From Candidatus Woesebacteria bacterium GW2011_GWB1_39_12 (lineage in GTDB: Bacteria > Patescibacteriota > Microgenomatia > UBA8517): a stretch of DNA of 53,735 bases. Position 1 is the stretch's first letter, and each line of letters opens with the position of its first letter. Positions 1,746 through 51,686 of the stretch are shown here, in pieces. Location of the stretch: NCBI GenBank assembly GCA_000993405.1, contig LBWB01000003.1:1-53735 (forward strand). Reading direction: 5' to 3'. The position numbers were made by a program, and so were the translations under genes. The notes under the pieces are model-generated. The model worked only from the letters and a program-made list of their open reading frames with translations. It made no database searches and was not told the DNA's origin.

Positions 1746-3229
1746 AAGGAGAAATGAAAAAATGGCTAAGTACAATTCAATCTATTACGAGCATATGCAC
1801 AAAATCAAGTCTAACACGGAGTGGTTCGCACATTTGAAAATCTGTCCTAATTGCTCGGTAGAACCATAAGAGGCTAGAGAACTTTGAACGTTAGAGTTGT
1901 TAGATTAACTAGCGATGAAGTTTTTGACATTATCAAATCAGATAGAACGTGGGAACTCTGCACCTTACGGCAGTTAGCGATTAATGGTGATGACGGAATA
2001 GCAACATTAGGGGAAGATTTTCGTTGGCATTGGATACGGGGCGGAGTAAAAGCGGTGATAGATTACGCGCGTAAGAACCCGGAACGAACCGTGCGATTAG
2101 CCCTAGACCAAGGCAGTAAATGGTATGGAAAATGTAAAGCCAAAAACCTTCGTATTAAAGTATGGGAGTGAAAACTTTGGCTTACGTTGAAACGATAACG
2201 GAACTAGACACGCGCCGACTAGACGAAGAAGCATACGCACAAATGCCGACACGCCTTAAGGTGAATTACTTTCACTGTGCTAAGTGCGGGCGGATTGTTA
2301 AGCGAACCGCTAAAGGCGAACTTAAATCGTGCCCGTTCTGCACCGAGAAAAAAGATAGGTGAAAAAGTTTTTGGCTAAGTTTCAATGTGTCAAATGTGGT
2401 AAAGTTTTCGCCGATGATAAAGACTGGAACACTTCATGGAATCATCAAGAAAAAACCCCGACGCACGACGAATTTAGGGAAGTAAACCCACGATGAAACT
2501 TAAAGGTGTCGAACCATTGAACACGGTAATCAAATTACCGGACGGACGTATCGGAACTATTTGTTATAATTGGTTGGACGGTTGCGGCGGCATATGGGGG
2601 AAAAAACATTTCGACACTGAGGAACGCATGGATAATCCTGATTTACCGGAACCGGAATTCATGCTAAGGGAAAAAGAGATTGAAGGAAAACTTCGCGGAT
2701 TAGAAAACGCGGAATGTGTCGGTGAAGAATATGAGATTCTATTGTAAAGACTGTGACAGATATTTTCGTAAACAGAACTTAGCCAAACAACATCTCTTAG
2801 AAACAATGCACGAAGTCGGAAAAGTAGTAAACCGGTGAGAACTTTTGAAAGTGGAAATTAAAGGTGATATTACCACGCCCGTTCATAACCCGACAGTAAT
2901 AACCATAGAGGAAGCGGGATTAGAAAGTCTAGAAATCATAATCCACAGCGTCCCGTTTCCAAGCGAGAAATACGGACAGGTAGCAAAACCCGTAACATTA
3001 AACGTTCAGCGTGCGGAGTTTCTACGCATAAGCAAAGTCTTAGGAAGGTGAAAAGAAAATTGAACGCTGAAGAAATGGAGCATGAAATAGGCATAGCGAT
3101 AATAGCGCTAGGTAATATTAACCATAGAAACCTAAGCGAGGTTGCACAACAACAATTACGCATTGCTAAAGACGCACTAGAGAGAACGCGAGAATAGAAC
3201 GGTGAGAACTTTCTAGGTCACGGCGATAA

Positions 3230-3289
3230 GTGCCCTGATGATGAATTAGGCAAGCTCTAATTCGAAACCCTCTTTTTGAGGGTTGGCGC
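3230..3289 (+). ncRNA. type I hammerhead ribozyme
   Basis: GTGCC-CTGATGA-T-GAATTAG/CTAATTC-GAAA-CCCTC/GAGGG-TT-GGCGC: three stems, full core, GUU cleavage triplet. Confidence 0.85.
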
Positions 3290-3701
3290 AAACACAAATT
3301 AGGAGAAGGTGAAAAATGATAGATAGAAAACGAGAAGGGTATGACGCGGCATGGAAGGAACTAGTTAGATTGCTAGAACCAGTCAAAGGCGATTCACGCG
3401 CAGTTTACGAAATTAGCGAAGGCTTTGCAGAGGCACATAATGACGCGCTCGCATACGTGAATAATCCAAACGGCAGAATGGTTGAATACTACCGAAAGAG
3501 CTATCCTAACTATGCCTTTGTTTAGGGCTTTGTTTTGTACTAAACCCGAACTGAACCTTTAGGAGAAAATGGGAAAATTGAAAGAACCATACCGTTTTGT
3601 TGTTGTGGACACGCCCTATAATAGAGCGTGGTATTCTAACCTTATCGGCAGATTTTTTGCCGAACCCCCCGCATACGCACAAGTAAAGGAGATATAAGAA
3701 A

Positions 3702-4067
3702 ATGGAAAATGCTGAAGTCATTTCGAGTTATTCACGAGCGCAAGCCATAGAAGATGGTATACTCGTAGACATATCAAATACGAGTGAAGCTAAAGAGGCT
3801 GGGTTCAAAATTCCCGTAGCACTAACCCGCGCTGTGTATTCCACAATTGAAGAGGGCATAGGAATAAACGGACAAGACCGAAAAGGCAGACTATGGGACA
3901 TTTGCTTTATGGCAACACGAGCGTTTAGAAACTTTCAGGAAGACAAGCACCTAGTCCCGTTTGAAGTTCTCATGTTGGATAAAGACACTAAAATGCAAAC
4001 GCTAAAACTTTGGCTAACATTCAACGAATACGAAGGGTTCACAATAATGTACCCGGAGGATTACTAA
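3702..4067 (+). CDS. DUF6573-like protein
   Basis: YSRAQAIEDGILVD...AGFKIPVALT...GQDxxGRLWD motif typical of this mobile-element family. Confidence 0.7.
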   Translation: MENAEVISSYSRAQAIEDGILVDISNTSEAKEAGFKIPVALTRAVYSTIEEGIGINGQDRKGRLWDICFMATRAFRNFQEDKHLVPFEVLMLDKDTKMQTLKLWLTFNEYEGFTIMYPEDY

Positions 4068-5480
4068 AAATGCCTTGTTCGAAATGTGATGGGCTAGGCT
4101 GGATTTTCCGCGTTGACTGGTTCGCCTTAATGCCCTGCTCTAACTGCTCTGTGAGGCCAGAACTTTGTTGATACTGAAACCGTGGAAATGTCGCAAGTGC
4201 GGAAACGTCATACGGAACAGTCTAAGCGAGATTAACGCGGAGTTTGCGAAGCACATGGAATTTATGGATAACGTGCCGCTAGAAACTTACTTCGAGGTTC
4301 TTGACAAATGAGCAACGGTCATGTTTTCATGCGCTGTCCCGTATGCCACACGCTGATAGAGAAAACGGATAGGAATGGTTACATTGATTTTCGTAAATCC
4401 CCGCACACGATTAAAGCCGTATGCCCAGAACATACTTTAGAGTTTCACCGTTTAATGCCCGACTGGACACCAAAAACAGAACGAGCCGTTCTCGAACTAG
4501 AAGCACAATATAAGAGATGAAAGAACTTTGAGAAAGATTCTAGCACGTCATAGGTGGGTTGCGGATGCTACGATAACGGAGAGCTACGACACGAATGAGG
4601 AATTTCGGGTTACACATAGGCGTTTCACAGCGACGGTTGACGGCTACCGTAACTTTAGAATCTATGACGGCGAACTTGAAGATGGATTAGTGAAACGGAT
4701 AATCGCGAAGGTTGAATCAATAAAAACGCGGATACGAAGCGGCGACGAAACAATATTACACGAAAACACATTATTGGAGAACTGAGAACTTTGCGAAAGT
4801 CTAACGTAATTCTATCAGAGCAAATACTCTCTAAAGTTTTGAATGGCATAAACACGGCAATATCATTTTGCGACCAGAACGAAGATAGCTACATCTATAA
4901 TTGTTTGCTTCGAGCGCGAGAGGAAATTGAACACGCAACAAAAGCATTATGAACGGTGAGAACTTTTGTTGATGGAATCGGTTTGGGTTTCATGGTTAGT
5001 GCATGTACCCTACTTGCTACCTCAAGAAATTGAGACTGATTATGGAGAGGATTGAGAACTTTGCCTAGAAAGAAGTTTTACCGTATCAGCGTAACTAATG
5101 GACATGAAGAAATCGCCGTGTACGAGTTAGGCAATTACTCGAAGAAACAAGCGTTAGCCGACTTCCTGAGAACATACTTACACATAAGCGAAGACCCGGA
5201 ATGAGGGAGAACCCTTTGCATAGCTGTCCTGATTGTGGGAACCCGACCACGGATAACTTTGAACTCTGCGATTACTGCGAAATAGATTTACTACAGGAAA
5301 TGTGCGATGTGCAAGGGGTATGAGAACTTTTGAAGCTCATCATTGAGCGTTTTCAATGTTTCCAACATGGAACCGTGTTTGAATCTGAGCGTGAGTATGA
5401 ACAGCATTTAATGGAAGCACACCACAAACCAAACATGAAACTATACGCATAGAAAACGTTTCCTAGTCGCTTAGTAATGA

Positions 5481-5539
5481 GCGCCCTTGAAGATGACTGA
5501 AGCAGAACTTTCAGTCGAAACCCCGTTTGGGGTTGGCGC
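5481..5539 (+). ncRNA. type I hammerhead ribozyme (variant core)
   Basis: GCGCC-CTTGAAGA-T-GACTGAA/TTCAGTC-GAAA-CCCC/GGGG-TT-GGCGC; same architecture as the 3230 copy with different stem sequences; one extra U in the core. Confidence 0.7.
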
Positions 5540-5666
5540 ATAAACACGCCACAACAAATTAGGAGAAAAGAAACAAGATGAAATTGAATCTGGATGGCTT
5601 AGAGGAACTATTCTCTATTGGAGAGTTTCGTAAGCGTAAGCGGTTTTGGGAGAGGTGAAAGAAACT

Positions 5667-6500: not shown

Positions 6501-6871
6501 GAGAACTTTGACTAGGTTCATTGTGAATCTACGGGTTGAAGTTATCGCGCGCAATTCGGAAGAGGCTAAGGCGAAAGCCATAATCCCATACGCGTACGGA
6601 TTTCCCGACATGTCAGCATATGTGACAGACGCAAAACTCAGGAGAGACTAAGAACTTTGTGGAAGATTAACCATACGAGTTTCGACAGTGGATTCACAAC
6701 CTTAGACTATCCGCGTAACCGCGAAGAAGCATTAGAAGCTTGGGAATTTTGGAAGGCGAAAGGATTCAGTAATTGTCTATTGACGTTGTACCGACCATGT
6801 GGAAGAAAAGTAAGAGACTACTACTCAGAAACGAAGAAAGAAACTGACTATGAAGAGGATGATTGAGAACT

Positions 6872-7756
6872 TTGTTTGAATGTAAAGTGGATGCGGAGCA
6901 GTTCAAGAACCTAATCAGTATGCCAACCGCGCTAATCGAAGAATGTGACATCACGCTCGGAACTTCAGGCATACGCGTGAACACGATGGACCCGGCTCAC
7001 GTCGCGCTTTGTCGGATTGAGTTAGCGAAAAGCATGTTCGAAGAATACGCGTGTGATAAGGATACGAAAATCCGGCTTGCGATAAACAGTAAGGGAACTT
7101 ATGGGAACGGTTCAAGCCTAGTCGGGCAATTCCCGAATAAAATCAAAGCCTCGCTGATGGACATTAAGTTACGTGGTGAAACCGAATTTGAGAAATCTCG
7201 ACTGGAACTTTCATTTCTCGGTAACCTTCGCAAGAACGCTAAAATCCCACTACTCGAAGCAAGCGAAGAGGAACCACCATACCCGAAAATTCGGTTCAAC
7301 GCTAACGTGAAAATCGTGTTAGCAGACTTACTCGAAGTCTTCAAGGACATGGAGAAGCATGGTGACAATTTCCGGTTAACCGCAACACGAGAAGAATTCA
7401 AAATCGAAACCGTCACGGAATTAACGGAACAAGTTTACCCGTTCGAGAAAGGCTCAGACGTAATGCTAGAGTTAGATGTACGCGAACCGAGTAAGGCTAC
7501 GTTCAACTTGAAGTATATGCTCGACATATTGAAGCAACTGAAAACCGCTTTTGAAATTGTCACACTTGAATGGTCAACGAACTTACCACTAAAAATCTCA
7601 GGTGAAAACATTCAAGGGGCAACCGTAGAATATTTCTTGGCTCCAAGAATCGAAGACCATGACGAACCAATCGAACGTAAACCCGAACCTAAACCTGAAA
7701 CAGAACTTATCCAAGAAGAAGATAAAATCGTATGCACGAATATCGTAACCAACTAG
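6872..7756 (+). CDS. pcna: DNA sliding clamp PCNA
   Basis: MDPAHVAL, FEEY, F(N)LKYMLDI, PLKI and YFLAPR motifs; acidic C-terminal extension; TTG start in the motif. Confidence 0.92.
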   Translation: MFECKVDAEQFKNLISMPTALIEECDITLGTSGIRVNTMDPAHVALCRIELAKSMFEEYACDKDTKIRLAINSKGTYGNGSSLVGQFPNKIKASLMDIKLRGETEFEKSRLELSFLGNLRKNAKIPLLEASEEEPPYPKIRFNANVKIVLADLLEVFKDMEKHGDNFRLTATREEFKIETVTELTEQVYPFEKGSDVMLELDVREPSKATFNLKYMLDILKQLKTAFEIVTLEWSTNLPLKISGENIQGATVEYFLAPRIEDHDEPIERKPEPKPETELIQEEDKIVCTNIVTN

Positions 7757-15750: not shown

Positions 15751-16878
15751 TTGCCGTCCACCATTCAAATTAATTCAGATGTTTTCGACGAAACCTACAT
15801 TCCCCCAGACCCCATTGTTCAACGAAAAGAACTCAGCCAAGTTGAGGAACTTTTAGAGCAAGACCGTCACGTCTACCTATTCGCTAAACCCGGCACAGGA
15901 AAAACATTTCTAGCTAAACAAATTATGGCAAAAAACCCAAACCATGTCTACATTCAATTTCTCAATTCGGTTCCAGAATCATTATCTAATTTCCTCAGCG
16001 TTACAAGTCCATTCGTAGCCACTCGAACAAACATCCTCATGGGGATGCTGGAAAAGAGACTTCGTGATAAGTCAATGCACCAGCCAATTCTAATCGTTCT
16101 TGACGACCTACAAGAATTACGGCGCGCAAAGGACTTCTACACTTTTATCGGCAATTTGTTTAGAAGACTAACGGCAAAGCCGAGCTTAGGACTACCGAAA
16201 ATTAAAAACCGCATACTCATGATTTCTCAAGAACCATACGTGAAAATGTCAGGTGAAGTTGGTAACGGGTTCGCCTCAAAAGCAGGGTCAGAGTCCAGAG
16301 GGCAATTCGCTCATGAATCCCTAATACCATACGACCAAGAACAAATCAAAAAGATTCTCACAGAGCGGCTCAAACTAGCCTTTCCGAAAGGGGTGAAAAT
16401 AGATTATGAAGAGGGCGCGTTAAACTTCTTCACGTTAGAAACACTTCGCCATGATTCTGATATGCGTCTGGCACTTAGATTATTGCGGCTTTGGTTGCAA
16501 AGCGGACATTTGACTAGTGAGAACGCGCGAGAGAGTTGGACGATTGAAAAGAAAGATTACTGGGCACATTACATTCGCGCACTTCACCGGCATCAAGCCG
16601 CCCTCGCACATCTTATCTGCCAACAAGAGCGGCCAATCACAATGCCGAAACTCGACGACCTATACGCAACGTTCTGCAAACAGCATGGTTGCGCGAGATT
16701 AGATTACACGCAGGTCACAAGGCTTCTTAGAGAACTGAAAGACCCAATCGGACTCATTGACATGGTTGAACTGAAACAGCGAGGGCGGCCATACGCAGTT
16801 TCCCTGAGAGCAAGCGTAACGCGTGAAAATGTGATTGAAGCAACAAGCGCAATCGATTGGGACAACTACTTAGAATGA
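15751..16878 (+). CDS. cdc6: Cdc6/Orc1-like AAA+ replication initiator
   Basis: VFDETYIP..R, Walker A KPGTGKT, Walker B LIVLDD, PYxxEQIKKILTER, DMRxAL, C-terminal winged helix. Confidence 0.85.
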   Translation: MPSTIQINSDVFDETYIPPDPIVQRKELSQVEELLEQDRHVYLFAKPGTGKTFLAKQIMAKNPNHVYIQFLNSVPESLSNFLSVTSPFVATRTNILMGMLEKRLRDKSMHQPILIVLDDLQELRRAKDFYTFIGNLFRRLTAKPSLGLPKIKNRILMISQEPYVKMSGEVGNGFASKAGSESRGQFAHESLIPYDQEQIKKILTERLKLAFPKGVKIDYEEGALNFFTLETLRHDSDMRLALRLLRLWLQSGHLTSENARESWTIEKKDYWAHYIRALHRHQAALAHLICQQERPITMPKLDDLYATFCKQHGCARLDYTQVTRLLRELKDPIGLIDMVELKQRGRPYAVSLRASVTRENVIEATSAIDWDNYLE

Positions 16879-18088: not shown

Positions 18089-21000
18089 TTGGCTGAGCAA
18101 GTAGCGGAACGTGAACCTCGTATTGATGAGCAGCTTCAACAGTTTCTACGCGACTTCAAAGATGAGAACGGCAAAGATAAGTACCGACTCCGACTATCCC
18201 AATTGGGCAATGCGGGCGGCACGGCACTCCTGATTGATTTCGATGATTTAATCGCGCACACCCCCAACATTGCCCGCCAACTCCTCGACAACCCCAACGC
18301 AATCCTACGCGACCTTGAGCTGGCAGCGTACGCGCAACTGAAAATGGAAGACCCCGAATACGCCGAACAAGCCAAAACTCTGAAGCTTCACTTCCGCAAG
18401 CTGCCATCCCACGAGTTCATCCGTAAACTTGGCGCGGCGCAAATCGGGCACCTAACCGCCGTAGACGGCATAATCGTACGGTCAACCGAAGTACACCCCC
18501 TACTTACGAAAGGGAAGTTTCAATGCCGCAAATGCAATGCCACCATTGATGTTGAACAGAACTTCAACCGTCCCTTCATGCGCGGTCCCGGTATCTGCGC
18601 TCACTGCCGCTCCAAAATTTTTGAATTTGTAGAAAAAGAATCCTCATATCTTAACAGCCAACAGCTTCGCATTCAGGAACGCCCAGAAGACCTACCCCCC
18701 GGCCAACTTCCACAAACTATCAATGTTCGTGTGATTGAGGATTTAGTGAACACGGCTCGTCCCGGTGACCGTGTAACCGTCACAGCAATCGTGAAAGCCC
18801 AACAGAATTATATGGGAAGAAAAGTCGCGTTAACAACCTTCCAACTTGAACTGGAAGCAAACTACATTGAGGTCGTCGGCAAAGAAGTAGACGTAGTTGA
18901 ACTCACACCAGAAGATGAACACAAAATCGTGGAATTATCCAAAGACCCGTTTATACACAGAAAACTCATCGCTTCTCTCGCTCCAAGCATTTACGGTTAC
19001 GGCGACATCAAAGAGGGGATACTCTACTTAATCGCCGGAGGTGTAGCGAAACAGTTACCGGACGGAATGAAGCTTAGGGGTGACCCGAACATACTTTTAA
19101 TTGGTGAACCCGCGGTTGCAAAATCACAACTACTTCAATATGTTGCGCGAGTGGCACCACGAGGACTCTATACGAGTGGTCGCGGAACTAGTGCTGCCGG
19201 TCTGACCGCAGCCGTACTTAAGGATAAAGCTGGGGGTATGGTCCTTGAAGCTGGGGCTTTGGTTCTCGCGGATAAAGGAGTCGCGTGTGTGGATGAAGTT
19301 GATAAAATGCGCCCCGAGGACAGAGTAGCAATGCATGAAACACTAGAGCAACACACCGTATGTTACGATGACCAAACAGAACTTCTCACGGCTCAGGGAT
19401 GGAAATTTTTCAAAGATGTTACTACTCGCGACACTGTTGCAACTTTAACCTCCAAGGGTCAACTGAAATATCAATCTCCAACACGTGTTTTCACCTGTAA
19501 ATATCAAGGAGACATGGTGGCAATCTCTAATTCACATAAAGTGAATTTGTTAGTTACCCCACAACATAAAATATACGCCTCACAATACCGGTCAGGAAAC
19601 ACATGGCTTCCATTCTCATTAGTGGCCGCGCGAGAATTAGTTAACAAGCGGTTTAAAATTAAAAGAAGCGCAAACTGGCACGGAAAAGAGAAAAAATATT
19701 TCATTCTACCTCAATATTCGAATAGGTATGAAACTCGCCCAGCAATTAAAATCGAGATGGGCCTTTTCCTTGAATTCTTAGGATACTGGCTTTCAGAAGG
19801 AAGTGCAGACAATTATCGGATAATGATTACCCAGAAAGAAGGAAAGAAACATCAGCTCATAGAAAAATGCCTTGCCCAATTACCATTTAGATATAAATTT
19901 GAACACTTCAAAAACAGCGACTCCGGTAACTTCATGATTCATAATGTTCAATTGGCTTGTTACTTTAAACCATTGAGCAATGGAGCGGCAACAAAATTCG
20001 TTCCGAACATGTTTAAACAATTGTCAACGCGGCAACTCACAATTCTTTTGGAAGCACTAATGGTTGGTGATGGCGGAACACGACAGCACACTAATGGCTC
20101 TATACAAAGAACATATTACACCACCTCACCGAAACTTGCTGATGATGTGCAAGAAATTTTATTGAAAACAGGGATTTCAGGGAACATCCGGAACCACCAC
20201 ACCAAAGGTAAAATGGGGGCTTTCGGTAAAGCTAACTATGATGAATTAGACGTATCTTTCGTTTTCAAGAATACCCCACAAGTGGGATATCATGCAAGTC
20301 ATGGAAGTAAATCGGGCACTCTAAAAATAATGCATGGGTATGATGGGGATGTTTACTGCGTAGAAGTTCCAAATCACATTCTCTATGTTAGACGGCATGG
20401 TGTTCCCGTTTGGAGTGGGAACTCAATAGCTAAAGCAGGAATTGTTGCAACGTTGAACGCGCGTGCCGCGGTGCTTGCGGCAGCTAACCCAGCATTCGGA
20501 CGATACGACCCGTACAAGAACATCGTTGATAACATTAACATGCCCATAACGCTCCTGTCAAGGTTTGATTTAATTTTCATAATGAAAGACACCCCAAACG
20601 CGGAAGCGGATGGACGGTTAGCGCGGCATATCCTCACCTTACATAGGACAAGGGATACGCCAGAGAAAATTCCGATTACGCCAGAGATGTTCCGTAAGTA
20701 TTTATCGTACGCGAAACGGGTTGTGCCAGTTCTTGGTCAAGAAGCAGAGGATGCTTTGTGGGCATATTACATGAAAATGCGTTCAACTACAGGCTCGGAA
20801 GCCCCGATAGCGATAACGGCTCGGCAACTTGAATCCTTAGTTAGACTTTGCGAAGCCCGCGCTCGGTTGTTCCTACGTGACACCGTAACCTTAGAGGACG
20901 CAAACGCAATCACACGTCTCGTCACACTATCCATGCAAGAAGTCGGCGTAGACGTAACCACAGGAAAAATGGACATAGACGTAATCATGAGCGGGACTCC

Positions 21001-21214
21001 TCAGAGTTTGCGGGAGAAAATTGATTTAACCATCAAAACCATGAGGGACTTAGAGAAACAGTTCGGAAAAACAATGGACATGTCACTCGTCATACAAGCA
21101 ATCGTCAACAAAGGATTACTCGCTGAGGAAGAAGTCTGCAACACAATTCAAACCCTCATCAAGAACGGTAAACTCTACGAACCTGCACCCGGCAAAATTA
21201 GCCTAATCGGATGA
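18089..21214 (+). CDS. mcm: MCM replicative helicase with intein
   Basis: Zn finger, QERPE, APSIYG, GEPAVAKSQ, VDEVDKM, AANP, LLSRFDL, TARQLE. Confidence 0.97.
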   Translation: MAEQVAEREPRIDEQLQQFLRDFKDENGKDKYRLRLSQLGNAGGTALLIDFDDLIAHTPNIARQLLDNPNAILRDLELAAYAQLKMEDPEYAEQAKTLKLHFRKLPSHEFIRKLGAAQIGHLTAVDGIIVRSTEVHPLLTKGKFQCRKCNATIDVEQNFNRPFMRGPGICAHCRSKIFEFVEKESSYLNSQQLRIQERPEDLPPGQLPQTINVRVIEDLVNTARPGDRVTVTAIVKAQQNYMGRKVALTTFQLELEANYIEVVGKEVDVVELTPEDEHKIVELSKDPFIHRKLIASLAPSIYGYGDIKEGILYLIAGGVAKQLPDGMKLRGDPNILLIGEPAVAKSQLLQYVARVAPRGLYTSGRGTSAAGLTAAVLKDKAGGMVLEAGALVLADKGVACVDEVDKMRPEDRVAMHETLEQHTVCYDDQTELLTAQGWKFFKDVTTRDTVATLTSKGQLKYQSPTRVFTCKYQGDMVAISNSHKVNLLVTPQHKIYASQYRSGNTWLPFSLVAARELVNKRFKIKRSANWHGKEKKYFILPQYSNRYETRPAIKIEMGLFLEFLGYWLSEGSADNYRIMITQKEGKKHQLIEKCLAQLPFRYKFEHFKNSDSGNFMIHNVQLACYFKPLSNGAATKFVPNMFKQLSTRQLTILLEALMVGDGGTRQHTNGSIQRTYYTTSPKLADDVQEILLKTGISGNIRNHHTKGKMGAFGKANYDELDVSFVFKNTPQVGYHASHGSKSGTLKIMHGYDGDVYCVEVPNHILYVRRHGVPVWSGNSIAKAGIVATLNARAAVLAAANPAFGRYDPYKNIVDNINMPITLLSRFDLIFIMKDTPNAEADGRLARHILTLHRTRDTPEKIPITPEMFRKYLSYAKRVVPVLGQEAEDALWAYYMKMRSTTGSEAPIAITARQLESLVRLCEARARLFLRDTVTLEDANAITRLVTLSMQEVGVDVTTGKMDIDVIMSGTPQSLREKIDLTIKTMRDLEKQFGKTMDMSLVIQAIVNKGLLAEEEVCNTIQTLIKNGKLYEPAPGKISLIG
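19361..20422 (+). mobile_element. intein with LAGLIDADG endonuclease in MCM (354 aa)
   Basis: Splits EQHTV|SIAKAG; starts CYDDQTELLT, TPQH block B, LGYWLSEGS and LMVGDG, ends VWSGN followed by Ser+1. Confidence 0.93.
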
Positions 21215-21821: not shown

Positions 21822-22841
21822 ATGCCACGAACTAAGAAAGTTCCCGAAGAAAAGGAAGCCGAACCTACTGAAACTGAGGTTGCTAAAGTTGAGAATGTGG
21901 AAGACCTTGAAGGAGTCGGGGCTGTTACCGCGCAAAAATTGGAGGACGCTGGCTATAACACCATCGAGATGCTTGCCTGTGCCATCGTCGAACAACTGAA
22001 AGCGTTGGACATTGAGGATAAGCAGGCACGGAAAATTATCTCTGCCGCGCGTGCGCAGGTGCACCGTTTCGGGTTAGAGTTCAAGACCGCCGACCAAGTT
22101 CTCAAGGAGCATGAGGCACGTTGGAAACTTTCAACCCATGTTAAATCGCTAGATGAAGTTCTTGGTGGAGGATTTGAATCAACAACCGTAAATACTATTC
22201 ATGGTGCATATGGATGCGGCAAAAGCCAGACATCACATTGGGCTACGGCATGTATGTTAGCAGATGATAAGGGCGCGCAAGTGTTATTTGTTGACACGGA
22301 AAATAGTTTTCGTCCAGAACGTGTTCTTAATTTCTTAAACATATTGGGTGGAAGTAAAGAGGACTTAGCGCGAGTAATCCATAGTGAGGCAATTAACAGT
22401 TCCTTTCAACGGCTCATCATTGAGCACGCAGGTAAGAAAATTAAGGAGAATAACGTTAAACTGCTAATCGTGGACAGCGCAACTTCCCATTTCCGAAGTG
22501 AGTATCCGGGTCGTGACCAATTATCGCCGCGACAACAAACCCTTAACGCCCACTTACAAGTTATCAGTAAATTGACACGGATGTTTGGGTTAGTCACAAT
22601 TCTAACTAATCAGGAAATTGCCGTGCCAGTCGTTGGGTACGGTGGTGGAGCTACATCTAAACCCGTCGCGGGCAACATCTTTGGGCATCGAGGTTTCATG
22701 AATTTGCAAATTTGGCGACCCGATAACCCAATGTCCGAAGTGCGCATAATTACGGTCGAAAAACACCCCAGCCTTCCCCCAAGACGAGTTGAAGTATCAC
22801 TAACCGAGCAAGGCTTCTCCGAAGCGAAAGAAAAGAAGTGA
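21822..22841 (+). CDS. radA: RadA recombinase
   Basis: N-terminal HhH (LEGVGAVTAQKL), LDEVLGGG, GAYGCGKSQ, DTENSFRPER, LIVDS..SHFRSEY, TNQ. Confidence 0.93.
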   Translation: MPRTKKVPEEKEAEPTETEVAKVENVEDLEGVGAVTAQKLEDAGYNTIEMLACAIVEQLKALDIEDKQARKIISAARAQVHRFGLEFKTADQVLKEHEARWKLSTHVKSLDEVLGGGFESTTVNTIHGAYGCGKSQTSHWATACMLADDKGAQVLFVDTENSFRPERVLNFLNILGGSKEDLARVIHSEAINSSFQRLIIEHAGKKIKENNVKLLIVDSATSHFRSEYPGRDQLSPRQQTLNAHLQVISKLTRMFGLVTILTNQEIAVPVVGYGGGATSKPVAGNIFGHRGFMNLQIWRPDNPMSEVRIITVEKHPSLPPRRVEVSLTEQGFSEAKEKK

Positions 22842-27062: not shown

Positions 27063-27821
27063 ATGGGGCCTCCGTGGACACAACAAGACATATCACGAGT
27101 TCGTGAATTATACCCTACGCACACCGCAACGCAAATTGGGATAGAATTAAGTAGAACCCGTCGTTCAATCAAACATATCACTCATAAATTTGGTTTTAGA
27201 AAACCACAACGCGATTACTCTCTAAACGAAAATCAAAAACAAGTTCTATTAGGAAGTCTACTTGGCGATGGGTCGATAATTCGTAGAAATATTAAGTCAT
27301 ATACATATCGTGAACCACACGGCATAGGGCAACAGGATTATTTACAATGGAAGGCACAAATTCTTGGGCATCTGGTTTCTTCACTTCATCCCTATGCGCG
27401 ATATGACCCTCGTTGGAACCGTACTCTTTGGCAAGTAGCGATGACTATGTACGGTAAATGGTTAAAACCGTACCATGACCAGTTTTATCCAGATGGTCAC
27501 AAAATACTTCCAACGCAAGCCCTCAATGAGTTAACGGGGTTAGGGGTTGCAGTGTGGTTCTGTGATGACGGGACTAAATCATCTGAGACAAGTCGTTTGC
27601 GGATTTACACTGATAGTTTCACAATGGATGAGGCGAAGATTATCTCCAAGTGGTTTTTAGATAAATTTGATATAATTACTCACATTACACCAAGGCCCCA
27701 TAAGCCAACTCATCCCATAATTGAAGTGCCGAGTTCAAGCACAGGTACCTTTGTAGCTCTAATAAAACCATACATGCCGATTTGTATGAATTATAAAATT
27801 ACGTTCAGAGAACCGTCTTAA
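27063..27821 (+). CDS. free-standing LAGLIDADG homing endonuclease with N-terminal HTH
   Basis: LLGSLLGDG and AVWFCDDG motifs, YLQWK, MNYK terminus. Confidence 0.88.
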   Translation: MGPPWTQQDISRVRELYPTHTATQIGIELSRTRRSIKHITHKFGFRKPQRDYSLNENQKQVLLGSLLGDGSIIRRNIKSYTYREPHGIGQQDYLQWKAQILGHLVSSLHPYARYDPRWNRTLWQVAMTMYGKWLKPYHDQFYPDGHKILPTQALNELTGLGVAVWFCDDGTKSSETSRLRIYTDSFTMDEAKIISKWFLDKFDIITHITPRPHKPTHPIIEVPSSSTGTFVALIKPYMPICMNYKITFREPS

Positions 27822-30915: not shown

Positions 30916-31573
30916 GTGATGAATGTTACATGCGGAATGAGGCTAAGGACGGTTACATGCCTTGTTGCTCGAAATGCCATAAACCCTTCGAGGACGCTGA
31001 AATAGGGGATGTTAAAAATTATCCTGAGGACGGACGCGTGTCAGTGTTCTTCAAATGCAATTCATGTCGAGACGAAGGTGGTGCCGATTTAGAATCCGAC
31101 TTCACGTACAAACCCGACTTGAAAGACGAATTCAAAGTTCGAGACATCAAATACATTCCACGACCAAAAGAGGATGATTGACAAATTGACTGATAAAAAG
31201 AAGAAGCCGCGAACATACTCGTCCGGCAACAGACAACTGGCCTTTCGACGATTAGTTTTCGGCACTCTCATCAGAACCCGTTTGTTGGAAGGATTAACTT
31301 GGGAGGAGTTGCCGAAGAAAATCGCGGACACATTAAACGTGCAAGTATCTAGAGGCCGGGGCATCAGGTCAAAATTGGTAGAGTGGAGTTGGATAAAATT
31401 TACACCGTCGAAAGTTGAGATTACCGATGTTTCATTCAGAGAGTTTGAAGCGTCATGAACAGGAAGCATAGGCACCGATATTATCCGGTCATGCGGTACG
31501 TGGGCTTAATTCCGTCTGAGGGGTGCGTCGGGTTCAGGTGCAAGTGTGGAAAACGGAGAAAGGAGAAACTGCC

Positions 31574-32989
31574 ATGAACGGATTCAAAATTTCCAAACAT
31601 CTAAAACTTCCACCTGAAGCGGTAGCATGGGTTATCGGATTTCTTGCGAAAAGGAACGCTGGAAAAACATATAACGCCGCGGACTTGTGCGAAGAAATGT
31701 TGAAGGCAAAAATCCCGGTCATAGTTATTGACGGGATGAGTGTGTGGTGGGGGCTACGTTCCGGCAAAGACGGAACAGGCTCAGGACTACCAATTGTGAT
31801 TTTAGGTGGTGAACACGCGGACATTAAACTCGACCCAACGAAAATTGAGAAGGTTGTTGAGGCTCTGCTTCAAACAAACACTAGTGCGGTTCTTGACATA
31901 GGGCAACTTCGTAAGGGCGAGCAAATGCGTGTGGTCACAGCGTTCGTTGAAGAACTCTACCGTCTCGCATTCAAGTATCCAGCAGAACGACACGTCTTCA
32001 TTGAAGAAGCAGACATGTTCGCGCCTCAGAAACCATTCAAAGAAGAATCCCGCTGCCTCGGTGCGTTCGAGGACTTGGTGAAACGGGGTGGTAACCGTAA
32101 TCTTGGTTGCACGTTGATAACTCAAAGGTCAGCATCCCTCAATAAGAACGTGTTAACCCAAGCTGATTGCCTAGTGATTGGTCGAACCACAGCGCCGCAA
32201 GATAAAGCCGCAATTCAAGCATGGGTAGAAAAACACTCAGAGAAAGACAAACATGAACTTGAAGAATGGTACGATAGCCTCAACGGATTAAAGAAAGGCG
32301 AAGCATGGGTATGGAACGCTGACGAAGAATGGAACATATTCAAGAAAGTGCAATTCCGAGAACGAGAAACCTTCCACGCCACACGTAAGTTCATGCTCAC
32401 TAAACACGCGCAGCAAATCAAACTCATGGATGCAACTGAATTCATTGAGAAATTCAAAGATAAATTTGAACCGAAACCAACCCCGAAACCGGTATCTAAA
32501 CCAGAGCCGCATTTAGTTCCAGAAAAAGCAACGTATGACACGAAACATAAGGTTCTCAATATTCCAATCGAACCACCTGTAACTTTCAAATCTGGAGAAA
32601 CAAAGCGATTGCCAGTTCCAACACAGAAAGATGTTGATGCCGCAATGGAAACGGTCAGAGTTAATCAAACCTTACCAAACATTATGGTTCAACAATTCAA
32701 ACCCACAATTCAACTAAGCGTGGAAACCTTACAGGAACCAACTTCAGCGTTAGGTCGCGTGTGTGTAGTGTTAAAGAATGATGCCCAAGCGGGAGGCAGA
32801 CAGGACGCGTGGACAACGAAAAGAATCACCACGCACATTCGCAACCACGCATGGGACGACGCGGGCGTTGAAGACGCCGTGAACCAATTAATCCGCTGGG
32901 AAATTCTTCGCAAGCAAAGCAACAATTACCTACGATTCTATCCTCAAAGAATACAGGTATCTGAAACACAAACACAGATGGAAGTGTAG
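31574..32989 (+). CDS. HerA/FtsK-like (DUF87) P-loop ATPase
   Basis: AKRNAGKT Walker A, VIVID, VFIEEAD.FAP Walker B, RG.N...G..LITQR. Confidence 0.85.
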   Translation: MNGFKISKHLKLPPEAVAWVIGFLAKRNAGKTYNAADLCEEMLKAKIPVIVIDGMSVWWGLRSGKDGTGSGLPIVILGGEHADIKLDPTKIEKVVEALLQTNTSAVLDIGQLRKGEQMRVVTAFVEELYRLAFKYPAERHVFIEEADMFAPQKPFKEESRCLGAFEDLVKRGGNRNLGCTLITQRSASLNKNVLTQADCLVIGRTTAPQDKAAIQAWVEKHSEKDKHELEEWYDSLNGLKKGEAWVWNADEEWNIFKKVQFRERETFHATRKFMLTKHAQQIKLMDATEFIEKFKDKFEPKPTPKPVSKPEPHLVPEKATYDTKHKVLNIPIEPPVTFKSGETKRLPVPTQKDVDAAMETVRVNQTLPNIMVQQFKPTIQLSVETLQEPTSALGRVCVVLKNDAQAGGRQDAWTTKRITTHIRNHAWDDAGVEDAVNQLIRWEILRKQSNNYLRFYPQRIQVSETQTQMEV

Positions 32990-46302: not shown

Positions 46303-46692
46303 GTGGACTACAGACACGAAGGCAAGCGAGTCTTTCTCGTAAACTATCACCTAGTTTGGATTCCACGCAGACGCAGACCCGTTCTGTTAGGAAGAATACC
46401 AAAGCGATTGACACAGATTATTCAGGTACTAGCGGAAGAGAATAGATGGCAGATTCTCGCCTTGGAAGTCCAGCCCGACCATGTTCACTGTTTCGTTTCA
46501 GCCGACCCATCAACAGCACCACATAAAATTGTGAAAGCAATCAAAGGACGCAGCAGCAACATGCTTCGTAAAGAGTTTCCAGAACTACTGAAACTGCCGA
46601 GTTTGTGGACTCGAAGCTATTTCTGTTCAACAGCAGGGAATGTGTCGAACGAGACGATACGCAGATACATCGAGGCGCAAAGCAAGAAATGA
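46303..46692 (+). CDS. tnpA: Y1 HUH transposase TnpA
   Basis: YHLVW.P..R, PDHVH, KGRSS, LWTRSYF, YI..Q. Confidence 0.95.
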   Translation: MDYRHEGKRVFLVNYHLVWIPRRRRPVLLGRIPKRLTQIIQVLAEENRWQILALEVQPDHVHCFVSADPSTAPHKIVKAIKGRSSNMLRKEFPELLKLPSLWTRSYFCSTAGNVSNETIRRYIEAQSKK

Positions 46693-47741
46693 AAGCGAAG
46701 AAAGTTATCAAATGTAAAATCATCGCGTTAACTGACCGAAAGCGCAGACTCCTAGAAGCCGAATACAACGGCCTCCAAGTATATCTGCAAACAGGAAAGG
46801 ATTCAGGGCTTTGTAAGACGAATATGCGGCAAGCGAAACGGTTCTACAAGAAAATACTAGTAACCCATGAGTATCCGCTGACGATTAGGAAAGACCTAAT
46901 TCGCTTCCAAACAAATGACTGTAAACTATCAAAGTTCTGGTTTTCCATTCCTGTAGGTGGACGAACCCGTTTATGGCTACCAGTACAGCCACACGCCTCA
47001 ATCCCTGAAGGTGCAACCCTCTGCGAGTCCAAGGTTACTCGTGGTCGGGACGGGGTGTTCTGGGCGCATTTGGTTGTTGAGAAAGAAATTCCATGTCACA
47101 CCGATTTCACGAACATCCTAGCTGTGGATTTAGGTGAGAGACTTCCAGCTACAACTGTGTTGTACGCTAACGGAGCCTTCAAGGAACCTAGATTCTACGG
47201 GCGGGAAGTTCGTGGAATTAGGCGACATTACGCTTGGCTTCGGAAGAGGCTGGGCGAGAAGAAGGCGTTGAATACAATCCGCAAAATCGGTCAAACAGAA
47301 CATCGCAAAGTGAACGACGCTTGCCATAAAATCAGTCACACAATCGTCGAACAGGCAAGCCGTGAGCGAGCAGTAATCGTCATGGGTGACTTGAAGGGCA
47401 TACGCGACGGCACGAAAAGGAGAGGTAGACGAATGAACCGTATCATCAGCAACATGCCTTACTACAAGTTAACGCAGCAAATCATGTACAAGGCTGCGTG
47501 GCTTGGAGTACCAGTCCATCAAATCCCAGAGCGGAACACTTCTAAGACCTGTCACCGTTGCGGTTCCACCGACACCACTAGGCTCAAACAACCAATCTTC
47601 GAATGCAAAGATTGTGGATTAATCTACAACGCTGACTTGAACGCTGCGAAAAACATAGCTGAGAGGTTCCTTGACCAAGCTGTTAAGGAACGGGGCATCT
47701 TGGCAGTGCCCGTAACTCCGCACGAAAGGAGCGTGCCTTAA
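46689..47741 (+). CDS. tnpB: RNA-guided nuclease TnpB
   Basis: AVDLG, TSKTCHRCG, C..CG...NADLNAA.NI; ATGA-coupled to tnpA. Confidence 0.93.
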   Translation: MKAKKVIKCKIIALTDRKRRLLEAEYNGLQVYLQTGKDSGLCKTNMRQAKRFYKKILVTHEYPLTIRKDLIRFQTNDCKLSKFWFSIPVGGRTRLWLPVQPHASIPEGATLCESKVTRGRDGVFWAHLVVEKEIPCHTDFTNILAVDLGERLPATTVLYANGAFKEPRFYGREVRGIRRHYAWLRKRLGEKKALNTIRKIGQTEHRKVNDACHKISHTIVEQASRERAVIVMGDLKGIRDGTKRRGRRMNRIISNMPYYKLTQQIMYKAAWLGVPVHQIPERNTSKTCHRCGSTDTTRLKQPIFECKDCGLIYNADLNAAKNIAERFLDQAVKERGILAVPVTPHERSVP

Positions 47742-47830
47742 TGAGTAGCAGAGAATCCCACGAATTTATTCATGGGAGTGTCAAGTAATCACCTGTTACG
47801 ATTGTTACGGGCAGTTCTGAGGGAAATTCT

Positions 47831-48973
47831 TTGCGTGTTCTTCACGCGTTCAATCTTGCGAATGATGGTTTTAATGTCGTTCGCGGGCTTCGTAAGATTG
47901 GTGTGGACGCAGAGCTTCTAATCCAGAAACCATCACATGTGGCTTCTCTTCCACAGTGGGAAGATGGTGAAGTTGACATGTTCCAACTCGGTAACCCATA
48001 CGACCCCAACTGGAACGCTTTCACATGGAACATGCCCGATTGGGTGCATGTTTGGAACGCGAACAAGAGTTGGTATCCGTTCAGTCGAACTCTCCGTTGG
48101 CTACGAATATTTGGAAAACTGAAAGGATACGACCTTATCGTGGGTCACGTTCCCTTTGCGAAAGTATCCACGCTTTATCAGACGTTATACGGTAAGCCGT
48201 ATATTGTGTATGATGCTGGTTGGATTCGCTACCTCAAAAATAATGCACGTGGATACGCGCGGGCGCGAAAGGGCTACGCGCAAGCAGCCATGATTTTGTT
48301 CACGAACGTTGACACTGAGCAAATGTTCCACGAACACGGCTACCATAACTTGTACTACACGCCGTTCGCGATTGACACTGACAAGTACACTCCAAGGCCC
48401 AACCACATTGACCACGATTATCCCGTGTTCTTTCATCCATCGCGGCATGATTGGGCTGAGAAAGGAAACGACCTGCTAATTCGAGCATTCGCAAGGTATG
48501 TGAAACGAAATCCGCGAGCGCTCCTACGCATGGTAGAGTGGTATCAGTCGCCAGAAGATTTGTGGGCAAGTAAACGCCTAATTCAAGACCTAGAAATAGC
48601 GAACAAGTGTGAATGGATTTCAGTACAACCAAAAAGTCGCCTAGTGAATCTTTATCGTGATTCAACCGCGATTTTTGACCAATTCGTTTTCGGAGCTTTT
48701 GGGACAACCTGCCCCGAAGGATTAAGTTGCGGTGTGCCTGTGGTGGGTTACGCGAAGCCGAACCTGTGGTTGCAATATCACGAAACCATGCCGCCCGTGC
48801 TTAACGCGTCAACCGAGAACGACATCTACGAAGCCATGCTTAGCTTAGAAGATGAGGCCACGCGCAAGCGGTTCGGACAAGAAGGACGACAGTGGGTAAT
48901 GGAAAATTGCTCTGACGTTGTGGTTGCTAAACAGCAACTAGCACTATACAAACAAGTGGTGGAATCAAATTGA
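47831..48973 (+). CDS. GT4-family glycosyltransferase
   Basis: KGNDLLIRAF, DQF..GAFG....EGLSCGVPVV. Confidence 0.88.
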   Translation: MRVLHAFNLANDGFNVVRGLRKIGVDAELLIQKPSHVASLPQWEDGEVDMFQLGNPYDPNWNAFTWNMPDWVHVWNANKSWYPFSRTLRWLRIFGKLKGYDLIVGHVPFAKVSTLYQTLYGKPYIVYDAGWIRYLKNNARGYARARKGYAQAAMILFTNVDTEQMFHEHGYHNLYYTPFAIDTDKYTPRPNHIDHDYPVFFHPSRHDWAEKGNDLLIRAFARYVKRNPRALLRMVEWYQSPEDLWASKRLIQDLEIANKCEWISVQPKSRLVNLYRDSTAIFDQFVFGAFGTTCPEGLSCGVPVVGYAKPNLWLQYHETMPPVLNASTENDIYEAMLSLEDEATRKRFGQEGRQWVMENCSDVVVAKQQLALYKQVVESN

Positions 48974-50604
48974 GCAAAGTCCCTGACAGCGCGATTGAGC
49001 TTCAACAATTTGTGATTCAGAAAATTCGTCATGACTATGAGAAGCAGCCAGACCACTTCGACCCTGAGCGACTTCTACAAGAGGGATACGGTAGGTGTGG
49101 ACATCGCGCTGTGGTATTTCAATACTTAGCAACACGTGAAGGGCTAACCTCACGAATTGCCTTCTATCGAGGTCATGTGATAAATCAGGTTCTCGTTAAC
49201 GGAGAGTGGGTTAATGTTGATTGCACGCGTCCTGACGGGCAATTCCACGCGGAACTCATCAAACACATTCTTTCAGGCCCATCCGTTGGGGTATCTACCC
49301 GCATTGATGTTCTTGAGAAACCTGCCCCTCGATTTCAGTACGGTGAATACTCGCAATGGCTCCTAGCCTTACAACACCGACATGTACGCTTCTTACTCCC
49401 ACGGGATTTACTTCACGGTATAGGGCTGTCTAACGATGTGCCTAACGTTATCTTACGTCATGACATTTGCGGAAGTCTTGGTTCGTGGATGGCTATGGTT
49501 CACGAGGAAAACCAGTTAGGCATCAGAAGCGTCACATATGTTCGGTGCGGAGAAATCCACAACGCTCAACTGTACAAAATGTTTGAGCATGAAGGCTTCG
49601 AGATTGGTCTACACATCACCGCGATACATCAACATGGCTTGACACTTCAGGAGGCAATGGACGAGTTTTGGGGTGAATACGCGATGGCGAAAACAGCGTT
49701 CAACATTGAAACCGTTCAAGCCCACGGATACGATGACGCAAAAGGTGTACCGGCAGTTACGAATTATGACGTGGAACGGCAGGTGCCTTTTGGCTTCGCA
49801 AACCTCGTTGAAGGCACTGGGAAATACGCGTGGAGAATCGCGGACAGTCTCGGAGTCATGTATCCGTCTAATCCACTTCAGGTGATTGGTAAACTGAAGA
49901 AAGGCAAACTGTACTATTGCCTTTGGCACCCCGAATACTACTCCGTAAGAAACGGATGGGCCAAATACGATGGACTAGATGCGGAGCCTTTCACGGACGA
50001 ACGACTAGAGCGCCACTTGAAGGCCATAAACCGGCGGTACGTTGATACGCCGTACTTTGACACCGCAAAACACCCACACCTCAATGCAGTCGCAGACTAC
50101 TTGAAGAAACATGGAAGGCTCGATGAACAGGTAGTTGACTTAGGCGCAGGGTGGGGCTTATTGGGATTACTGATTCGCGATAAACATATGCGGTATGTCC
50201 CGATAGATTTGGAATACAAACGCATGAAGGCCGGACAGACCCTATACCAATCCTTGAAGATTAACGCTCCACCATTTCAATGCCACGACCTACTCGATGA
50301 GGCTCCTGTTGTAAGTGCCGATTGGGTTGTCCTAGTCGGATGGGAAGGTGACATGAAAAAACCCGAACCCATATTCAAATGGCTCGGACACGCCGGACGT
50401 AGACTTATCTTAAGCTACATCAACCAAGAAAAATACGAAGCAAACTGGTCAAGTAAGTTTCCAACCAATCATTACCGTCTAACCTCTGAATCCGAATTAC
50501 ACTCATTCATATCTGACAACGAACTAATAGAGGAAAAGCGTTTAACCAAGGTCTACCGCGACGGGTTCCCACGCGAAATCGCGGTTCTCAGGAGAAACAA
50601 TTAG
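48970..50604 (+). CDS. fusion: transglutaminase-like + polysaccharide-deacetylase-like + SAM methyltransferase
   Basis: GRCG...HV.N.V...W..VD; LRHD...FEIGLH...AHG...WHPEY; VVDLGAGWG. Confidence 0.6.
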   Translation: MSKVPDSAIELQQFVIQKIRHDYEKQPDHFDPERLLQEGYGRCGHRAVVFQYLATREGLTSRIAFYRGHVINQVLVNGEWVNVDCTRPDGQFHAELIKHILSGPSVGVSTRIDVLEKPAPRFQYGEYSQWLLALQHRHVRFLLPRDLLHGIGLSNDVPNVILRHDICGSLGSWMAMVHEENQLGIRSVTYVRCGEIHNAQLYKMFEHEGFEIGLHITAIHQHGLTLQEAMDEFWGEYAMAKTAFNIETVQAHGYDDAKGVPAVTNYDVERQVPFGFANLVEGTGKYAWRIADSLGVMYPSNPLQVIGKLKKGKLYYCLWHPEYYSVRNGWAKYDGLDAEPFTDERLERHLKAINRRYVDTPYFDTAKHPHLNAVADYLKKHGRLDEQVVDLGAGWGLLGLLIRDKHMRYVPIDLEYKRMKAGQTLYQSLKINAPPFQCHDLLDEAPVVSADWVVLVGWEGDMKKPEPIFKWLGHAGRRLILSYINQEKYEANWSSKFPTNHYRLTSESELHSFISDNELIEEKRLTKVYRDGFPREIAVLRRNN

Positions 50605-51680
50605 TGACAGAAAACATCTCTGTCTACCAATCCTGCCTACGACCCCAACACCGTATCCTACGCTACGCGAAAAGGAAACTAGGCTTCAACCAAGCCCAAT
50701 CACGCATCATCAAAATGAGCCGCGAACAAGCCAAACGTGTACTCTACCACCGCGACTTCCCACTCAGCGTAAATATCCTGCTAGGAAACTTCTGCAACCT
50801 CTCGTGCCCGGCGTGCCCCTATCATGGAAGCTATGCACCTAGTTACTTTAGGCAATTTGATAAGATGAGTGATGAGGTCATTGACCGATTAGTTGACGAA
50901 TTGCCGCACTATCAGACTAACGCTAAATTCGGGGGATTCGAGGAACCGCTGGCTTTCAAGGCTGGATTCAAGCGCATAACTACGGCTCTGAGAGACAAAG
51001 GACTAGGAGTTCACGTAACTACTAACGGGACTTTAATCACTGACGATTTGCTTCACACTTTGCAAAACCTTTCAACGATGTACGTGAGCTTGGATGCCCA
51101 CTCGATAGCAACGTACAAGACGGTGCGAGGAGCAGACTTCAATAAAGTTGTCGCCAACATCGAGAAAGTCAGGCAGGGCTTCAAAGGCGTGAAGTTCGGA
51201 GTGAGCTTCATACGTCAACCAAAAAACGAACATGAAATGCAAGTCTTCAAAGACCACTGGATTACGAAAGCTGACATGGTGATAATCTATGCGTTACTCG
51301 AATTCAACAAGCACGACTACAAAATCGACCGTCCATTCCTAGCATCTCCAAAAGAACGAATTGTATGTAGTAGCCCATTCCTAGAAACCTACGTGCTTCC
51401 AAATGGTGACGTATCGCTTTGTTGCGAAACCCTATTGCTAACCGACCGCGATTCTGTGCCAATCATGGGCAACATTAAAGAACGGTCATTACACGAGATT
51501 TGGAACGGTGAACAATACCGAGCATATCGTGATGCCCTTGTTGACGAAAACTGGAAGATTGCCGCGATTTGCCAACAATGCCCACTTTGGGCAGCCTCAT
51601 ACTATGAAACACACAATGAGAATGGTGTGAAAGTCACTCATAATCCTACCACGGAAGTTTTAGAGAGAATCGCGAACTGA
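50604..51680 (+). CDS. radical SAM/SPASM protein
   Basis: CNLSCPAC, EEPL, TTNGT, SLDA, C..PF....V..NGDV..CC...GNI, C..C. Confidence 0.9.
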   Translation: MTENISVYQSCLRPQHRILRYAKRKLGFNQAQSRIIKMSREQAKRVLYHRDFPLSVNILLGNFCNLSCPACPYHGSYAPSYFRQFDKMSDEVIDRLVDELPHYQTNAKFGGFEEPLAFKAGFKRITTALRDKGLGVHVTTNGTLITDDLLHTLQNLSTMYVSLDAHSIATYKTVRGADFNKVVANIEKVRQGFKGVKFGVSFIRQPKNEHEMQVFKDHWITKADMVIIYALLEFNKHDYKIDRPFLASPKERIVCSSPFLETYVLPNGDVSLCCETLLLTDRDSVPIMGNIKERSLHEIWNGEQYRAYRDALVDENWKIAAICQQCPLWAASYYETHNENGVKVTHNPTTEVLERIAN

Positions 51681-51686
51681 CTTCAC

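Follow-up and report, generated by a model that had tools for sequence, protein, structure and literature searches.

Two putative self-cleaving type I hammerhead ribozymes are encoded by the DNA analyzed here (the window, 53,735 nucleotides in full), both on the coding strand and both between genes of what appears to be an archaeal-type tailed virus. From the sequence, we put the probability of this reading at about 0.7; it includes the view that the two copies, located at 3230-3289 (copy 1) and 5481-5539 (copy 2), are paralogous. That RNA polymerase passes through both sites, that the RNAs are catalytically active and that cutting has consequences for expression is what we infer from the letters, activity being less certain for copy 2 with its extra core U.

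Anatomy and variation of the two hammerhead copies

Copy 1 lies on the + strand and is a type I hammerhead whose core is complete and whose stems I, II and III have 5, 8 and 6 pairs. Stem I joins GUGCC (3230-3234), supported by letters, fold and copy comparison, to GGCGC (3285-3289), supported by letters and copy comparison; one of its five pairs is U.G. The core strand C3 U4 G5 A6 U7 G8 A9 (CTGATGA) occupies 3235-3241 and is followed by an extra U at 3242, between A9 and G10.1. The stem II hairpin (3243-3263) has a loop at 3251-3255 and eight pairs (3243-3250/3256-3263), made up of seven Watson-Crick pairs (3243-3249/3257-3263) and a G.U pair (3250/3256). G12 A13 A14 (3264-3266, within GAAA 3264-3267) leads into the stem III hairpin (3267-3283), in which CCCTC (3268-3272) pairs with GAGGG (3278-3282) around a UUUUU loop (3273-3277) and A3267-T3283 forms the 15.1-16.1 pair. 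The cleavage triplet is GTT (3282-3284), and hammerhead numbering applied to the letters places the predicted cut between U17 (3284) and G1.1 (3285). A preliminary description had proposed a type I hammerhead at 3230-3289, and every element of it was found in the letters where it had been placed, including the single extra U after the core and the 7-bp stem II, which gains the G.U pair. The cut that it had predicted after 3284, about 30 nt before the ATG at 3316, leaves a leader of 31 nt by our count. This leader (AAACAC ... AAATTAGGAGAA, 3290-3315) contains the ribosome-binding site and carries a motif common to copy 2; it precedes a + strand gene (3316-3525) for a 69-aa protein of no known family. 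The minimum-energy structure of a 71-nt stretch holding copy 1 is the three-way junction (-23.7 kcal/mol, z -3.4), with 1 of 200 shuffles doing as well.

The search that revealed copy 2 used a covariance model (R1) derived solely from the flagged 60 nt of copy 1 and run unfiltered over the window. R1 matched 5481-5539 on the + strand (48.4 bits, E 3e-11); nothing else in the window scored under E 0.26, and no further match at E 0.1 was obtained in the window or in the genome bin into which it was sorted. Letters, copy comparison and fold agree with the match, and copy 2 alone folds as a three-way junction (z -4.0). Its parts, all on the + strand, are stem I (5481-5485/5535-5539, GCGCC with GGCGC), the core CUUGAAGA with one U above consensus (5486-5493), an extra U (5494), stem II of eight pairs with loop CAGAAC (5495-5502/5509-5516), GAA (5517-5519) and stem III, an A-U pair plus four pairs closed by a GUUU loop (5520-5524/5529-5533). 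U17 of its GUU triplet is at 5534, giving a predicted cut at 5534/5535. The leader (5540-5577) again contains AAACAC, at 5542, and AAATTAGGAGAA, and the ATG at 5578, 43 nt beyond the predicted cut, opens a small + strand ORF of 26 aa (5578-5658). The motif AAACAC ... AAATTAGGAGAA has only these two sites in the window, 3290 and 5542.

When the two copies were compared, all 19 of 19 pairs were standard in both. Five pairs were changed on both sides (three in stem II and two in stem III), and one change was one-sided, a U.G to C-G replacement in stem I. Shifting the partners against each other by 1 to 3 columns left 29-49% paired and no double changes, the alignment in this comparison being one fitted to the model. 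An unfitted MAFFT alignment of both gaps including flanks, given to RNAalifold, returned the same three helices with four double changes. The unpaired core letters are equal in both copies except for N7 (U vs A) and the extra U in copy 2, and the loops differ; because the two copies and a 30-letter glimpse of a third variant share ancestry, this core conservation is weak as statistics. Measured against the hammerhead class, the core strand C3 U4 G5 A6 N7 G8 A9 is present in copy 1 and in the third variant, and copy 2 alone does not strictly conform (CUUGAAGA). G12 A13 A14 and the A15.1-U16.1 pair occur in both copies (GAAA 3264-3267 with T3283; GAAA 5517-5520 with T5533), both obey the NUH rule with GUU and U17 at 3284 and 5534, and three helices with compensatory change are present, as judged from two full sequences.

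The third variant came from aligning contigs of four DNA runs to window positions 2400-4400. Run X3, from another sample and study, holds the window form plus a 113-nt contig that is identical over 3264-3293 and differs upstream. The 30 letters of it that are visible read C-CUGAAGA, U, a 7-pair Watson-Crick hairpin of new sequence with loop CAGAAU, U, and GAAA. C3, U4, G5, A6, G8 and A9 are thus kept, the free N7 is changed, and the rebuilt stem II is closed by U.U; stems II that begin with U10.1-U11.1 are described as natural, active variation (PMC3088659). In run X7, one contig starts at 3251, inside loop II of copy 1. In these runs, both from other groundwater samples, contigs start or switch within copy 1 at 3251 and 3264, and the downstream gene is identical. 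The virus population may be mosaic around copy 1, with the ribozyme at a strain boundary, breaks in short-read contigs being weak evidence of this.

Chance expectation, class assignment and relatives

The expectation by chance was estimated with a descriptor comprising CTGANGA with or without one inserted nucleotide after A9, GAAA, TH and a minimum of 3 pairs in each of three helices, scanned in all three hammerhead topologies on both strands. It found 26 loci in the 1.5-Mb bin, copy 1 ranking best (5+8+6 = 19 pairs). Further hammerhead-like matches in the bin (C4:45933, C14:23146, C14:36540 and others), and a weak one in the window at 53585, seem to be chance or coding sequence. First-order Markov simulation of 18 Mb at the composition of the genome yielded 228 loci, one of which reached 19 pairs, and none of 134 loci in sequence simulated with the composition of the window reached even 17; the expected number of chance loci as good as copy 1 is about 0.003 or fewer per window. 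This number is insufficient alone for a scan of many thousands of windows, so conservation was needed as well. It is very improbable that copy 1 is a pattern match that arose under no constraint. The descriptor tolerates one inserted letter, a simulated locus with 19 pairs did occur, such matches are expected when very many windows are scanned, and the Rfam models are silent. Against this stand copy 2, found at E 3e-11 and with compensatory changes, the third variant with its rebuilt stem II, and the position of both copies between genes on the sense strand, each with the same leader downstream; the existence of the second copy and of the X3 variant settles the question of chance.

The preliminary description had named the Rfam hammerhead models as a check, and these gave it no backing. 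The whole window had no match to Rfam at gathering score, stretches of 261, 68 and 67 nt searched at E<=10 returned no hammerhead and only C/D-box, miRNA and other noise, and RF00163, RF02276 and RF00008 run over the bin found nothing at either copy site. Among this noise were weak matches driven by UGAUGA, to snoU30 (18.5 bits) and to sR33, sR18 and sR10 (7.5-8.7 bits), where the gathering scores are 37-45. We give next to no credence to the idea that the element is an archaeal C/D box small RNA guiding 2'-O-methylation, or else an oligo-T terminator hairpin as the T5 loop of copy 1 stem III might suggest. No CUGA D box precedes the 3' strand of the terminal stem (3285 or 5535), the would-be C box is GAAGA in copy 2 and in the X3 variant, and the supposed guide regions are covarying hairpins. 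The T run of a terminator is likewise not conserved, being T5 in copy 1 and T3 in copy 2.

By motif, the copies are filed in the hammerhead ribozyme class (clan CL00010), outside the curated RF00163, RF00008 and RF02276 families. They share with RF00163 (Hammerhead_1) an open stem I, capped stems II and III, the core letters in copy 1 and the predicted cleavage chemistry, and differ from it in the extra U after A9 and in stems II and III that are much longer than its 45-position model. The extra U after A9 is ordinary variation and poses no problem. An A is reported at the A9/G10.1 junction of CChMVd(+), where a U raised the trans-cleaving rate 3-4 fold (PMC3705267), and an extra nucleotide after A9 is also reported for the minimal hammerheads of Penelope elements. 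An inserted u or g lies between CUGAUGA and stem II in all three of the alignments listed for Rfam-passing type II phage hammerheads, and a GUU triplet followed by GGCGC likewise occurs in an Rfam-passing phage match (L031 1964-2027). The CChMVd(+), Penelope-element and phage type II hammerheads thus have a letter between A9 and G10.1 as the window copies do, whereas their topology is another and their hosts are a plant viroid, an animal retroelement and bacterial phages. For an extra U inside the core, as in CUUGAAGA of copy 2, we found no literature report that it is tolerated; with this U, copy 2 may be slow or dead.

Beyond the core, no complement of loop II (CAAGC in copy 1, CAGAAC in copy 2) was found by eye in the flanks of either copy, and no pseudoknot is evident. 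Because stem I has only 5 pairs and no tertiary contact is evident, cutting could proceed slowly at the Mg2+ levels of a cell. Between stem I and an outer helix predicted around each copy lies a large internal loop that contains the conserved AAACAC, and this loop could in the modeled structure provide such a contact.

No further member of the type I family was present in any collection searched. At the DNA level, 12 kb and 133 nt of the window had no match in the phage collection, nor did 1.3 kb in 40 related genomes. A 21-mer of the hammerhead 3' half was absent from viral_contigs and genome_contigs; its five matches in metagenome_contigs were all unrelated terminator-like hairpins or coding sequence. 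Looser sequence patterns gave no type I relative. Five of the 16 loci from a looser pattern (L021, L027, L028, L031 and L033) read as type II hammerheads of bacterial phages, and a further 2 + 7 pattern loci were without CUGA before the match. Four of six loci tested against Rfam held 23 RF02276 matches above gathering score. L021, L027, L031 and L033, bacterial-phage-like records of IMG/VR, carry 5-6 Rfam-passing type II hammerheads each, all within 4 kb, many with an insert after A9.

Searches with neighboring proteins had a similar outcome. The 69-aa protein had no relative in viral_contigs or in 400 other genomes of the phylum, and PCNA had none in viral_contigs. A 121-aa protein was found in two viral contigs at 45-54% identity; neither has CTGANGA within 3 kb of the matching gene, upstream or downstream, and the whole records are without a match to R2, a covariance model built from both window copies. 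R1 run over 124 other family genomes gave three weak matches, none with the core. RF02276 gave no match in these 124 genomes, a result that is little informative as the controls were silent too.

R2, run over 150 class, 138 order and 150 phylum genomes, found one true hammerhead, of another topology; a second match (G161) was a pair of hairpins without the core. The true one is a type II hammerhead (G095:C6:93-145, identical to L048 93-145) on a 2561-bp contig of a same-family archaeal bin. It has a GUC triplet, CUGAUGA and GAAA, and lies about 16 nt upstream of GGAGG and an ATG, beside an HNH-like small gene. With the window copies it shares AGUCGAAACCCC...GGGGGU, a place before a ribosome-binding site and ATG, and a score below the Rfam cut-off; it differs in being circularly permuted (stem II open), with a canonical GUC, no inserts and a 3-pair stem I hairpin. 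Instead of forming stem II, its AAGUC strand could pair with a GACUU that lies upstream. Because this textbook hammerhead also fails against Rfam (20.6 bits, gathering score 37), the silence of the models at the window copies weighs less.

A virus-like gene array and earlier intergenic hammerheads

The window is the entire contig C3 of a bin of 56 contigs and 1.51 Mb, and from its genes it reads as an archaeal tailed-virus-like genome or fragment binned with a small-genome groundwater archaeon. The archaeal virus-like setting named in the preliminary description is borne out by PCNA (6863-7756), Orc1/Cdc6 (15751-16878), an MCM interrupted by a LAGLIDADG domain (18089-21214) and RadA/Rad51 (21822-22841), all identified by Pfam, together with a terminase-large-subunit-like protein (31523-32989; PHROGs, E 7e-14). 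The contig also encodes a free LAGLIDADG endonuclease (27063-27821; Pfam), an endonuclease VII-like protein (PHROGs) and a TnpB-like protein with a Cas12f1-like TNB domain (46605-47741; Pfam). In the MCM gene, the LAGLIDADG domain is inserted between the P-loop and lid domains, intein-like. The stretch at 46605-53108 starts with the TnpB-like gene, continues with glycosyltransferase, transglutaminase-like, radical-SAM/SPASM and B12-binding radical-SAM proteins and has a G+C of 48%, above the remaining contig; it resembles a cargo or host-like module placed at the end of the contig.

The G+C of the contig is 45%, against 36-41% in most other contigs of the bin. The nearest genomes measure 0.6-1.3 Mb, and the runs that contain contig DNA are groundwater metagenomes, with no RNA run listed among them. 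No short identities, and hence no CRISPR spacer match, were found between the contig and the remaining bin, and the contig has no terminal repeat. Since no spacer-like identity ties it to the bin, bin membership and with it the host assignment are uncertain. A match to the archaeal SSU model does not separate the domains, because bacterial controls pass too.

Nearly all ORFs of the contig are on the + strand. Within 1-14 kb all genes are on this strand, mostly at most 12 nt apart or overlapping, and the 118-nt gap of copy 1 and the 193-nt gap of copy 2 (5453-5645) are among the few real intergenic gaps. The two predicted cut sites bracket about 2.25 kb with some ten small genes. In a crude test, the only TTTAWA in the first 7 kb of the + strand was at position 90, outside both gaps. 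The gap at 4953-5051, which begins like that of copy 1, was read by eye as coding for some 29 aa, in a small ORF preceded by the common GGTGAGAACTTTTG start motif.

Gene starts in the window have a characteristic appearance. GAGAACTTTG is found at 17 sites on the + strand and at none on the - strand, between 1877 and 40395 (for example at 4784, 5054, 6029, 6501 and 10536). It usually lies at a gene start, its final TTG being the start codon behind a GGTGA-like ribosome-binding site, and is unusually uniform. The two genes downstream of the hammerheads use AAATTAGGAGAA with ATG, unlike the GAGAACTTTG TTG starts. Between the upstream stop codon and copy 1, GGTGAGAACTTT (3201-3212) is the common gene-start motif with TTC replacing TTG; it may be what is left of a gene start since lost.

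Reports of intergenic hammerheads in the operons of phages and haloviruses date back to 2011 (PMC3088659). The haloarchaeal viruses HF1 and HF2 are reported to carry one 13 nt before the start codon of a helicase gene, in an early polycistronic transcript, with an RNA 5' end mapped within 3 nt of the cut site (PMC3088659), and this hammerhead is mentioned again elsewhere (PMC7230728). The remark in the preliminary description that few archaeal hammerheads are known is therefore only partly apt, the HF1/HF2 hammerhead having been described in 2011 (PMC3088659). In prophages, multiple hammerheads are described as flanking genes, and a transcript-cutting role has been proposed for such clusters (PMC3088659). 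The window copies resemble these phage, prophage and HF1/HF2 hammerheads in lying between genes of a long same-strand viral unit, in phages with several per genome. With HF1/HF2 they further share a position just before a start codon in a polycistronic transcript, presumed in the case of the window, of an archaeal tailed virus, whereas the window host, provided that the binning is correct, would be a small-genome groundwater archaeon and not a haloarchaeon. These earlier hammerheads are mostly type II or pseudoknotted and recognized by Rfam, whereas the window copies are type I, with an open stem I of 5 pairs, long stems II and III and no evident pseudoknot or Rfam match. The literature searched contained no hammerhead report for viruses of small-genome groundwater archaea.

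Folding in context and proposed processing of the array

In their surroundings, both copies are enclosed by a predicted outer helix that covers the ribosome-binding site. At copy 1, the CU-rich + strand sequence ACUUUCU (3208-3214) is predicted to pair with the Shine-Dalgarno region at 3304-3310 (context 3198-3322); at copy 2, UUUCCUAGU (5459-5467, + strand) is predicted to pair with AUUAGGAGA (5558-5566). The outer helix is predicted at both copies whether the hammerhead is enforced or not, and at each its upstream strand sits just 3' of the upstream stop codon. In the model, it may lengthen stem I distally, beyond the large internal loop that holds AAACAC, or may mask the ribosome-binding site for as long as the RNA is uncut. 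Coincidence is also possible, because the letters of the helix are shared by descent and it has no covariation.

In both contexts, hairpins that draw on the stem I strands compete with the hammerhead and are favored. In the 125-nt context of copy 1, they reach -30.9 vs -28.9 kcal/mol for the hammerhead (a gap of 2.0), and stem I has a probability of 0.05; in the 132-nt context of copy 2, the values are -39.7 vs -32.1 kcal/mol (a gap of 7.6) with a stem I probability of about 0. Co-transcriptional folding could still permit cutting despite these hairpins.

The competing folds bear on an explanation that is unlikely, with a small though appreciable chance of being right: that the element is a structured spacer, derived from or shaped like a hammerhead and repeated as a junction of two hairpins, whose present role is not self-cleavage and lies in RNA stability, in translation control or in serving as a DNA recombination junction through which gene blocks are exchanged. 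The insertion in the copy 2 core would fit such a role, as would hairpins that out-compete stem I in context, an outer helix predicted over the Shine-Dalgarno at both copies and the lack of an Rfam hammerhead match. X3 and X7 contigs that break or switch inside the element (3264 and 3251) would fit mosaic junctions, a recombination signal that is weak because it comes from short-read contig ends. What argues against a spacer is the kind of letters that are kept. A non-catalytic element needs no CUGANGA, no GAA, no A15.1-U16.1 and no non-G at position 17, all of which are retained in copy 1 and in the X3 variant; the two differ only in N7, stems and loops.

We therefore return to the self-cleaving reading, under which the array would be transcribed as a long polycistronic RNA. 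Each ribozyme would fold as a three-way junction and cut after U17 (3284/3285 and 5534/5535). The upstream RNA would carry a 2',3'-cyclic phosphate after its terminal stem III hairpin, and the downstream RNA would begin with a 5'-OH at GGCGC(AU)AAACAC...AAAUUAGGAGAA, 31 and 43 nt before the next ATG. Such cutting would uncouple the stability and translation of adjacent gene blocks. It may also help to free the ribosome-binding site, because the predicted outer helix pairs this site with the upstream CU-rich stretch. The suggestion in the preliminary description that the hammerhead may process a long polycistronic mRNA thus finds support at the level of sequence, and is strengthened by copy 2 and the population variant.

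An improbable extension of this scheme is that the paired cuts release an RNA of ten genes and about 2.25 kb, bearing a 5'-OH at one end and a 2',3'-cyclic phosphate at the other, which RtcB joins into a circular, viroid-like polycistronic mRNA. Circularization by RtcB is conceivable because these are the ends that the ligase joins, and an RtcB ligase gene is present in the bin. The joined ends would rebuild an intact hammerhead, because the 3' strand of stem I, GGCGC, is common to both copies. In a milder reading of the same structures, the ribozyme may act as a gate that frees the ribosome-binding site from its predicted CU-rich partner strand.

If they are active, the two copies would join the very few ribozymes seen so far in archaeal viruses, as a pair of type I hammerheads in a setting of small-genome groundwater archaea whose viruses and RNA processing are almost unknown. 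The case stands out in that Rfam is blind to it, the copies come as a pair with the same leader, a helix is predicted to cover the ribosome-binding site, and the excised block might be circularized by RtcB. The Rfam models miss both window copies and the canonical type II hammerhead in a related bin, so hammerheads in such lineages are probably under-counted. The locus would also offer a compact test system, in which two ribozymes bracket a gene block, each with the common leader, a ribosome-binding site and a predicted helix that may hide it.
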